Below, in pieces: positions 18,080 through 18,776 of a stretch of DNA of 39,008 bases (the first letter of the stretch is position 1; each line of letters begins with the position of its first letter). The notes under the pieces were generated by a model. It was not told where the DNA came from. It did not search any database and saw only the letters and a list, made by a program, of their open reading frames with translations. A program made the translations under genes and the position numbers. The stretch covers positions 1-39,008 of the IMG/VR virus record IMGVR_UViG_2737471857_000016; one strand, given 5' to 3'. This DNA is from a virus. Lineage: Duplodnaviria > Heunggongvirae > Uroviricota > Caudoviricetes.

Positions 18080-18116
18080 TCATTACAAAGCCCATCTACG
18101 GGTGGGCTTGATAATG
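18080..18116. repeat. stop-adjacent conserved hairpin element, copy 1
   Basis: ATTACAAA + GCCCA-N8-TGGGC + TTGATAATG immediately after TAG stop; second copy at 18736..18776. Confidence 0.5.
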
Positions 18117-18363
18117 AAACCGTGATTTACATCCCCACAATCCGGGTATGTAAAAGATAGTTCAGGCGAGAACGGATTTAACTAAATCTGTGCGCCACCA
18201 GTTAACGGCAGTACAGCGAAACAACCCAAGCCAGTAAGTGGGGAAATAACACTGGCAGCCACTGAAAGATGAACCTCCTGCCTTATGGCAAAAAAGATTC
18301 TTTGTGGTGGCGGACTGATGGAAAGACATCCTAATCAAGCAACCACTCCACAGGGTCATAATT

Positions 18364-18735
18364 ATGAACGACCAGCAAATCGAAAAAGAAATCGTTGAGA
18401 AAGGCAAAACGGCACCGCGCGTTACGCCAGACCATATCGAAGGCATTATTGCTCAGGAGGCATATTTCACAGCAGAAGATGGTGCCTTTGGCAAAGCCAT
18501 AAAAGCGAAACATACTGGCGGAGAGGTAAACTACCAGCCGCACGAATCACTTTCTCTGCTGACGTTCTGCGTCCTGGTGCTGCGCAACGGCTTCACCGTC
18601 ACCGGAGAGAGTGCCTGTGCAAGTCCGGAAAACTTTGATGCAGAAATTGGTCGGAAGATTGCCCGGCAAAATGCTGTAAACAAAATCTGGATGCTCGAAG
18701 GTTACTTGCTGAAGCAGAAGCTAAGCGAACAGTAG
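18364..18735 (+). CDS. hypothetical phage protein (123 aa; possibly Gp49-like family)
   Basis: Clean ORF between lysis genes and terS; family assignment from memory only. Confidence 0.55.
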   Translation: MNDQQIEKEIVEKGKTAPRVTPDHIEGIIAQEAYFTAEDGAFGKAIKAKHTGGEVNYQPHESLSLLTFCVLVLRNGFTVTGESACASPENFDAEIGRKIARQNAVNKIWMLEGYLLKQKLSEQ

Positions 18736-18776
18736 TTATTACAAAAGCCATTCCCTACAGAGTGGCTTTGATAATG
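18736..18776. repeat. stop-adjacent conserved hairpin element, copy 2
   Basis: ATTACAAAA + GCCA-N12-TGGC + TTTGATAATG immediately after TAG stop; matches copy 1. Confidence 0.5.

Follow-up and report, generated by a model that had tools for sequence, protein, structure and literature searches.

Hairpins in the late operons of temperate enterobacterial phages resemble the RNase III processing sites of phages T7 and T3

We analyzed a 39,008-nt stretch of viral DNA (IMG/VR record IMGVR_UViG_2737471857_000016, positions 1 to 39,008; hereafter, the window), which is a P22/Sf6-like (Lederbergvirus) prophage, and in particular two short related elements, E1 and E2, that follow two consecutive accessory genes in its late operon. 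E1 and E2 are copies of a widespread, unannotated family of hairpins in the late operons of temperate enterobacterial phages. Judging by their likeness to the RNase III sites of phages T7 and T3, the members of this family are most likely previously unannotated RNase III processing signals of temperate-phage late operons. Specifically, we consider it probable that E1 and E2 are signals at which host RNase III processes the late mRNA into its separate cassettes, with a secondary role as recombination joints.

Scanning the whole window for the pattern ATTACAAA-N(15-35)-TTGATAATG yielded exactly two matches, both on the + strand, namely E1 (18082-18116, 35 nt) and E2 (18738-18776, 39 nt), whereas none of 100 dinucleotide-preserving shuffles of the window contained a match (expected 0, observed 2). 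E1 starts 2 nt 3' of the TAG stop codon (18077-18079) of a 91-aa open reading frame (ORF), and E2 starts 2 nt 3' of the TAG stop codon (18733-18735) of a 123-aa ORF, in agreement with a preliminary description of this DNA that had noticed two related elements directly behind these genes.

The same description pictured, between the two flanks of each element, a GC-rich stem of 4-6 bp whose loop measures 8-12 nt. Instead, the conserved flanks pair with each other, so that each element forms one irregular hairpin of roughly 20 bp. In both, an AU-rich lower stem, AUUA/UAAU, with 1-4 extra pairs that include part of the stop codon, is separated by a 2x2 internal loop, CA/GA, from an upper stem of 9 bp in E1 and 10 bp in E2, which is capped by a terminal loop of 4 nt and 6 nt, respectively. 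The lower stem of E1 comprises 18082-85/18112-15 plus C18081-G18116, followed by the internal loop (CA, 18086-87; GA, 18110-11), the upper stem (18088-96/18101-09) and the terminal loop (18097-18100). In E2, the lower stem (18738-41/18772-75) is lengthened by 18734-37/18776-79, the internal loop is at 18742-43/18770-71, the upper stem at 18744-53/18760-69, and the terminal loop at 18754-59. The two cores, delineated by the pattern, the fold and the covariance model introduced below, are:

18082..18116 (+), E1 hairpin core, ATTA-CA-AAGCCCATC-TACG-GGTGGGCTT-GA-TAAT-G
18738..18776 (+), E2 hairpin core, ATTA-CA-AAAGCCATTC-CCTACA-GAGTGGCTTT-GA-TAAT-G

Folding of both strands had been proposed as a check: on the + strand, the 61-nt E1 segment folds with -25.0 kcal/mol and the 65-nt E2 segment with -20.6 kcal/mol (z about -5.2 each; -5.25 for E2), and the folds of the - strand are weaker (z = -3.4 for E1 and -2.5 for E2). 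The absence of a U-tract on the plus strand, noted earlier, holds for both strands downstream of both hairpins; the TTTGTAAT reported on the minus strand is indeed present but is merely the reverse complement of the left flank.

Another check proposed in the preliminary description, a motif search in related phage genomes, showed that the element is conserved and forms a large family. An exact-flank scan of viral contigs recovered about 49 hairpin-type copies, in addition to unrelated AT-rich chance matches. These copies share the same flanks and have covarying upper stems (GCCCA/TGGGC, AGCCA/TGGCT, GCGTC/GGCGC, GGGTA/TGCCC and GGGCGG/CTGCCC). Among 25 unique members, 99.1% of the cells pair, compared with 88% in shuffled sequences and 31-47% with slid partners, and 5 pairs show compensatory changes; this set was chosen partly by folding, and less biased checks were therefore added. 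A covariance model built from lambdoid elements only (the element model, R1) was searched over 82 loci, of which 80 were picked solely for encoding DUF2560, the other two being those of Sf6 and HK620. The search recovered copies with altered flanks, for example, ATTG…CAAT, a compensatory change of the lower stem with the CA/GA loop retained. For 64 loci, the entire 3.5 kb preceding the DUF2560 gene was available: 62 of these carry one or two copies on the + (late-gene) strand, copies on the - strand are absent throughout, and in 58 a copy ends exactly 62 nt before the DUF2560 ATG. Under a pairing rule that tolerates G·U and A·C equally, the upper stems of 50 unique elements contain 393 Watson-Crick pairs, 69 G·U pairs and only 4 A·C pairs. 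This excess of G·U over A·C, together with clean folding on the + strand only, identifies the strand that folds as +, that is, the sense strand of the late genes.

Within the window, the element model scores E1 at 66.1 bits and E2 at 54.4 bits and, with filters off, scores nothing else as an element; a weak match at 6849-6884 (-) lies inside coding sequence (MTVVITYLADDNA…) and was dismissed as chance. An Rfam 15 scan of the window gave no match overlapping either hairpin, even at E <= 10. The two hairpins of Sf6 are unannotated in the GenBank stretch 35334-39043, and nothing is annotated at the hairpin in the HK620 stretch examined. Literature searches found no description of the family, although they did not extend to the HK620 and Sf6 genome papers, which may mention the hairpins.

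The upper stems of the family follow those of the RNase III sites of T7. Across 66 unique elements, the pairs read upward from the internal loop are A-U, A-U, G-C, S-S, C-G/G-C/U·G, C-G/U·G, A-U, U·G, (U-A) and C-G, with A-U in 82% at position 1 and 95% at position 2, G-C in 82% at position 3, U·G in 68% at position 8 and U-A or C-G at position 9; the T7 sites R0.3, R1, R1.1, R4.7 and R18.5 conform to this pattern pair by pair. E1 has an upper stem of the T7 R1/R0.3 class (AAGCCCAUC-UACG-GGUGGGCUU, compared with AGGUCAUC-UGCG-GGUGGCCU in T7 R1), whereas E2 (AAAGCCAUUC-CCUACA-GAGUGGCUUU) shares 8 of 10 upper-stem pairs, identical in register, with T7 R1.1 (AAGGUCAUUC-GCAA-GAGUGGCCUU). The upper stem of the P22-type copy is GAGGCCAUUC-AAU-GAGUGGUCUC, and that of a variant located behind a tail gene in Morganella (AAGGGUAUC…GGUGCCCUU) is identical to the stem of T7 R0.3 (AAGGGUAUC-GCAA-GGUGCCCUU).

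Profile searches in both directions point the same way. The element model, which contains no T7 sequence, was run on the whole T7 genome with filters off and produced six matches, four of which are the upper stems of sites R1, R1.1, R0.3 and R18.5 (P about 2e-8) and one the TE terminator. The R-site and cleavage coordinates of T7 used here are reportedly those of Dunn & Studier 1983; the T7 GenBank records examined do not list R sites. The T3 record annotates ten stem-loops as 'RNase III recognition site', which makes the test on T3 independent of those coordinates: five of nine matches fall inside annotated sites (R1.3, R0.5, R18.5, R1.1 and R4.7; binomial P = 1.2e-9). Another T3 match, at 17301-17322 (+) (AAGAGUAUCUACAGGUGCGCUU, 12.2 bits), lies inside gene 6.5 but outside the annotated R6.5 stem-loop (17135-17206) and may be an unannotated site or a chance match. 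A reverse model (R2), built from eight T7 sites and run on the window, ranked E2 second and E1 fourth and fifth. Its top match in the window, 6295-6331 (-) at 19.1 bits, is a hairpin (AAGGCUGCC-UGAC-GGUGGCCUU) followed by UAUUUUU at the end of a gene of the early left operon, with the TGA stop codon within the loop; its sequence suggests an intrinsic terminator with a stem similar to the R-site consensus. In a control search with the element model, the DLP12 and Qin prophages of K-12 (44 kb) yielded no upper-stem match and no copy of the element, only flank-fragment noise; a K-12 copy would have allowed comparison with published RNase III maps.

The hairpins can also be compared with what is established for the enzyme itself. 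The positive determinants worked out by experiment for E. coli RNase III are a proximal box (G-C, A-U, A-U), a distal box (U-A, U·G) and a helix of no fewer than 11 bp separating the cut from the loop (PMC1540722). When the register of these boxes is set by the mapping onto R1.1 made in this analysis, the elements have the proximal pairs G-C, A-U, A-U by the internal loop and the distal pairs U-A, U·G near the terminal loop. They are irregular hairpins of about two turns that attain the minimal length (E1, 9 bp + 2x2 loop + 6 bp plus further pairs; E2, 10 + 2 + 8), and they lie between the cistrons of a polycistronic mRNA, on the strand that is transcribed. Reciprocally, the element model finds T7 and T3 sites and the reverse model finds E1 and E2, albeit with marginal E-values for single matches. 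In T7, both early and late precursors are processed by RNase III, and R1.1 is cut at a single bond (PMC4858673). The R1.1 segment occurs in a gfp-reporter primer in a paper that elsewhere mentions a gfp vector bearing a 'splice site' for RNase III (PMC6615863).

Under the mechanism that we propose, each element would fold, within the Q-antiterminated late transcript, into a hairpin of about two helical turns, which RNase III, the double-strand-specific enzyme of the host, would bind and cut at or beside the CA/GA internal loop. The cuts in T7 R0.3, R0.5, R1, R1.1, R4.7 and R18.5 reportedly lie 3 nt 3' of the upper stem, and the predicted bonds, by analogy with the T7 sites, are:

18112..18113 (+), predicted RNase III scissile bond of E1, GAU↓AAUG, after 18112
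18772..18773 (+), predicted RNase III scissile bond of E2, GAU↓AAUG, after 18772

Cleavage would part the mRNA of the lysis and accessory genes from that of the next accessory gene or from the DUF2560/terminase (packaging/head) mRNA. If only the 3' side were cut, the upstream RNA would end in a protective hairpin, and each cassette could be expressed and degraded independently of its neighbors. In general, internal loops restrict RNase III to one phosphodiester and leave a protective 3' hairpin (PMC1540722). The suggestion in the preliminary description that the elements could be RNA stability elements or protein-binding sites thus pointed in the right direction, given their match in sequence and structure to the E. 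coli RNase III processing-signal consensus and the protective 3' hairpin that sites of this type typically leave. As the only conserved sequence between otherwise unrelated cassettes, the element would double as a crossover point for cassette exchange between phages, and reliance on a host enzyme would account for its being shared by unrelated phage types of Enterobacterales.

A transcript end has been reported at one member of the family: a study of P22 small RNAs reports P22G, a 204-nt sense RNA that extends from the end of rha through the leader, with its 3' boundary inside the P22 element (…GGUUAUUGCAGAGGCCAU) (PMC13397905). The leader spanned by P22G is homologous to about 18196-18330 of the window.

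Several considerations weigh against the RNase III interpretation. P22G marks only a transcript boundary at the element; its 3' end lies in the 5' arm of the upper stem, off the predicted bond, and comes from small-RNA-seq read coverage, which is imprecise. Single cross-model scores are weak (8.9-17.9 bits, E = 0.04-6), and the case for likeness to T7 and T3 is made by where the matches fall, not by individual E-values; the reverse model scores minus strands, too, because the element is palindromic. The T7 cut positions are those attributed to Dunn & Studier 1983, and of the two phages, only T3 has its sites annotated in the record. The symmetric 2x2 CA/GA internal loop of the elements differs from the larger asymmetric CUC/UAUGA bubble of T7, such that either a single (stabilizing) or a double cut (destabilizing, as in lambda sib) could result, and the lower stem is short (4-8 bp). 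Furthermore, the strict conservation of AUUACA…GAUAAUG exceeds the published RNase III determinants, and another ligand might be involved. Cutting of the elements by RNase III is a prediction from their likeness in sequence and structure.

E1-type sequence is present in 620 of 5426 complete E. coli genomes, typically in one place per genome (the median) and in three at most; this is a prophage element rather than a dispersed host repeat. All copies are intercistronic in late operons and oriented with the late genes. They sit 3' of accessory genes in the interval from Rz/Rz1 to the terminase, in phages with P22-type, lambda Nu1-type and HNH/P27-type (HK97-type) packaging modules. Among 74 distinct upstream contexts, 47 have an ORF end within 15 nt of the element, the commonest spacing being 2 nt. 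A scan of a genome collection added Enterobacter, Pseudocitrobacter, Siccibacter, Morganella, Xenorhabdus and Pectobacterium. In prophages of the last three genera, the element lies directly 3' of the tail-tube gene (Phage_tail_2 + Big_2), before a DUF6246 gene. In this context, the neighboring codons have diverged between species and the upper stem differs, yet still pairs, whereas the flanks stay the same; as the search pattern prescribed them, their constancy is supportive only. Copies behind tail genes, with stems of the form GGGYR…YRCCC, were seen at 2331-2365 of one record (L020) and in eight others, including one in an Achromobacter-labelled metagenome-assembled genome (MAG).

The elements bound exchangeable cassettes. 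Megablast of 17760-19170 against phage genomes gave no full-length match, and many alignments begin at query positions 316-322, that is, 18075-18081 of the window, where E1 has its left edge. Across loci, one and the same element is preceded by more than 30 different contexts and followed by more than 10, the downstream sequences falling into a few classes, and the end of the 91-aa gene is joined in other phages to element variants with differing downstream sequences. In HK620, E1 and its leader are followed by the P22-type copy without an intervening gene, where Sf6 and the window have a gp49/66 gene and E2 instead. In P22, the part of the leader that is transcribed in P22G follows rha and continues straight to the P22 copy of the element, the gene being absent.

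Several relatives, including L183 (about 2112-2200), L197 (about 2834), four further named loci and others, have a solo left flank, CATTACAAA, then an insert of about 40 nt with a canonical intrinsic terminator (AGCCUCGCAUUCGCGGGGCUUUUUUAUU), and then a complete element that again begins with CATTACAAA. By its sequence, this arrangement looks as if the left flank had received an insertion, or had recombined, with 9 bp being duplicated. Empty sites with a target duplication, as expected of MITE-like insertion, were sought and none was clear-cut, this arrangement being the only related case.

In the window, the two hairpins belong to the following segment of the late operon:

16831-17334, lysozyme gene (late operon, from the gene order list)
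17319-17768, Rz gene (late operon)
17804..18079 (+), 91-aa accessory ORF, directly 3' of Rz (from the ORF list; without Pfam family)
18117..18363 (+), 247-nt non-coding leader from E1 to the gp49/66-family gene (the ATG of the element opens no ORF conserved across relatives)
18364..18735 (+), 123-aa accessory gene, Phage_gp49_66 (PF13876, E = 8.6e-35; ORF list)
18777..18838 (+), 62-nt DUF2560 leader including a second small hairpin (from the fold)
18839..19081 (+), DUF2560 gene, homologue of hkbM / P22 orf80, first gene 3' of E2 (PF10834, E = 1e-43; PF20901)
19161-19586, Sf6-type small terminase gene, then large terminase and portal

Among the Rfam families, the sar RNA (RF00262, 34154-34221 (-), 95.6 bits) alone attains its gathering score in the window, and it confirms a P22-type immI region in this prophage. 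The segment 18070-18370, comprising E1 and the leader behind it, folds with z = -4.3. The 247-nt leader, which has no convincing ORF, may be a structured RNA in its own right; it contains a sub-threshold Rfam match to Proteo-phage-1 (RF03044) at 18225-18260 (16.8 bits, where the gathering score is 42; E = 5). The second small hairpin, at 18792-18813 (+) in the DUF2560 leader (GGGATAAC…GATATCCC), is built on TTATCCC…GGGATAA-like repeats. Hairpins of this type are also found just 3' of the elements, upstream of DUF2560 genes, at four other loci, and in both P22-like and HK97-like (HNH + P27-type terminase) contexts. At another locus (L120, 5008-5042), the element lies between the Q and holin genes, directly upstream of a NUMOD4/HNH homing-endonuclease gene, and HNH genes are present in the element hotspot of several megablast-matched phages as well.

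Three further assignments were considered and rejected. The terminal ATG of TTGATAATG is not a plausible start codon, as the ORFs it would open are 1-30 codons long and not conserved across contexts. TTGATA resembles a promoter -35 box, but neither downstream context offers a -10 box at a usable distance, and a promoter scan was blank there. The flanks, read by eye, do not fit the IHF or DnaA sites, WATCAANNNNTTR or TTATCCACA.

The features of the elements could also be explained in ways that do not involve RNase III. A generic intercistronic hairpin, similar to the repetitive extragenic palindromic (REP) elements, could block 3'-5' exonucleases and perhaps hinder terminating ribosomes, thereby tuning expression of the upstream accessory gene. 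The stable hairpin on the sense strand, its size and position and the tight spacing to stop codons described above all fit this explanation; REPs within 15 nt of a stop codon reportedly lower translation, as Liang et al. are said to have found in 2015. However, sequence conservation is not required merely to block an exonuclease, and here the flanks, the internal loop and the upper-stem pairs are conserved, the latter equaling those of the T7/T3 sites. Membership in REP or its composite form (BIME) would require many dispersed copies per genome, unlike an element that occurs about once per genome and only in prophages. We consider the REP-like explanation unlikely. An intrinsic terminator, either for non-antiterminated sense transcription (a moron terminator) or for antisense transcripts, the latter proposed in the preliminary description, would be another explanation: the hairpins stand right after genes, and the element and reverse models pick up true terminators as well (TE of T7 and T3), but neither strand has a U-run behind the hairpin (+ strand, UUGAUAAUG; - strand, UUUGUAAUG), the 3' flank (GAUAAUG) is itself paired in the lower stem, and a terminator scan of the window listed neither element. 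For antisense termination in particular, the 69 G·U against 4 A·C pairs are telling, because on the minus strand the former become A·C mismatches that would weaken the hairpin. Moreover, in some relatives a canonical terminator (…GCGGGGCUUUUUUAUU) is found immediately upstream of the element, which implies that the element is something else. A terminator function is therefore very improbable.

Alternatively, the elements could act in DNA, as linker or boundary sequences or as single-strand hairpins of the attC or IS200/REP type that mediate cassette exchange. Such a role would be in keeping with mosaic breakpoints located exactly at the element, the multitude of contexts joined to one element, and the solo left flank with an inserted terminator upstream of a full copy. 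The conserved flanks around a variable paired center are also reminiscent of attC sites, and folded single-stranded DNA would likewise tolerate G·T wobble. An actual integron attC-type site was rejected: the flanks are ATTACAAA/TTGATAATG, not RYYYAAC/GTTRRRY, and the neighbors are lysis, accessory and terminase genes with no linked integron integrase. More generally, no dedicated recombinase gene is linked to the elements, which are flanked by lysis genes, terminase genes and a variety of small ones, plus HNH genes in some phages only. The upper-stem consensus matches an RNA-processing signal, for which a recombination site offers no reason, and ordinary homologous recombination already predicts crossovers at a conserved island of 35 bp. 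In diverged phages, the element persists between two tail genes that are essential and syntenic and show no exchange of cassettes. There, between the tail-tube and DUF6246 genes, it cannot be a scar of cassette acquisition; the scar proposed in the preliminary description agrees with the position of the elements at mosaic breakpoints but not with their being conserved functional sequences that persist between conserved genes of distant phages. A primary role in DNA recombination appears to us a rather poor prospect.

If the elements are RNase III sites, about a tenth of complete E. coli genomes carry a defined, testable processing signal, which would also be present in prophages of Salmonella, Shigella, Enterobacter, Xenorhabdus, Morganella and Pectobacterium. 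The customary picture of a lambdoid late operon is a single antiterminated transcript of 20-25 kb, the processing of which is little discussed; the signal would mark the boundary between the lysis/accessory and packaging genes, as well as the end of the tail-tube gene. It would explain how foreign 'moron' and anti-defense cassettes can be inserted into a late operon without disturbing their neighbors, the sharp mosaic joints in the hotspot, and the origin of some phage-derived small RNAs, and would provide a compact natural insulator part together with a covariance model for annotating such sites. More speculatively, the hairpins might be the standard 'sockets' of a plug-and-play cassette system, in which each accessory gene comes with an insulating RNase III site that also supplies homology for swaps across P22-, lambda- and HK97-like phages, and which shares ancestry with the R sites of the T7 group. 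We offer this only as a tentative possibility; common ancestry, if real, would link RNA processing in virulent and temperate phages.

Among known systems, the elements resemble the boundary ('bsq') or linker sequences put forward to account for the mosaicism of lambdoid phages in being short conserved sequences at the junctions of exchangeable modules. In the Sf6 GenBank stretch examined, however, the only bsq is bsq7, inside gene 63, and bsq are not described there as structured RNA. With the REP/BIME sequences of Enterobacteria, they have in common that both are imperfect palindromes of 35-40 nt in 3' untranslated regions or intercistronic spacers, orientation-specific and potentially able to stabilize upstream mRNA, but a chromosome holds hundreds of REPs, which are associated with RAYT transposases and have another sequence. 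Phage lambda itself has RNase III sites, in the N leader, in sib/int retroregulation and at cIII. There, as proposed for the elements, the host enzyme sets the fate of an mRNA of a lambdoid phage through a hairpin in an untranslated region. Those sites, however, are single, unrelated hairpins in early or int transcripts, not a repeated late-operon family; they undergo double-stranded cleavage, which in sib destabilizes the message, and no sequence resemblance to the elements was seen.

The closest counterparts are the R sites of T7 and T3 (R0.3, R0.5, R1, R1.1, R1.3, R4.7 and R18.5). The carriers of the elements are temperate, lambdoid and other siphophages and P22-like podophages, transcribed by the Q-modified host polymerase, unlike T7 and T3. 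The flanks AUUACA/GAUAAUG are specific to the element family, whose members in many contexts follow a stop codon at a distance of 1-4 nt (mostly 2 nt) instead of following a promoter. Like the R sites, the elements are irregular sense-strand hairpins between cistrons of polycistronic phage mRNA, with a small terminal loop, a 9-10 bp upper stem of the consensus 5'-AAG S Y C A U (U) C … G (A) G U G R S CUU-3', an internal loop under it and an AU-rich lower helix.

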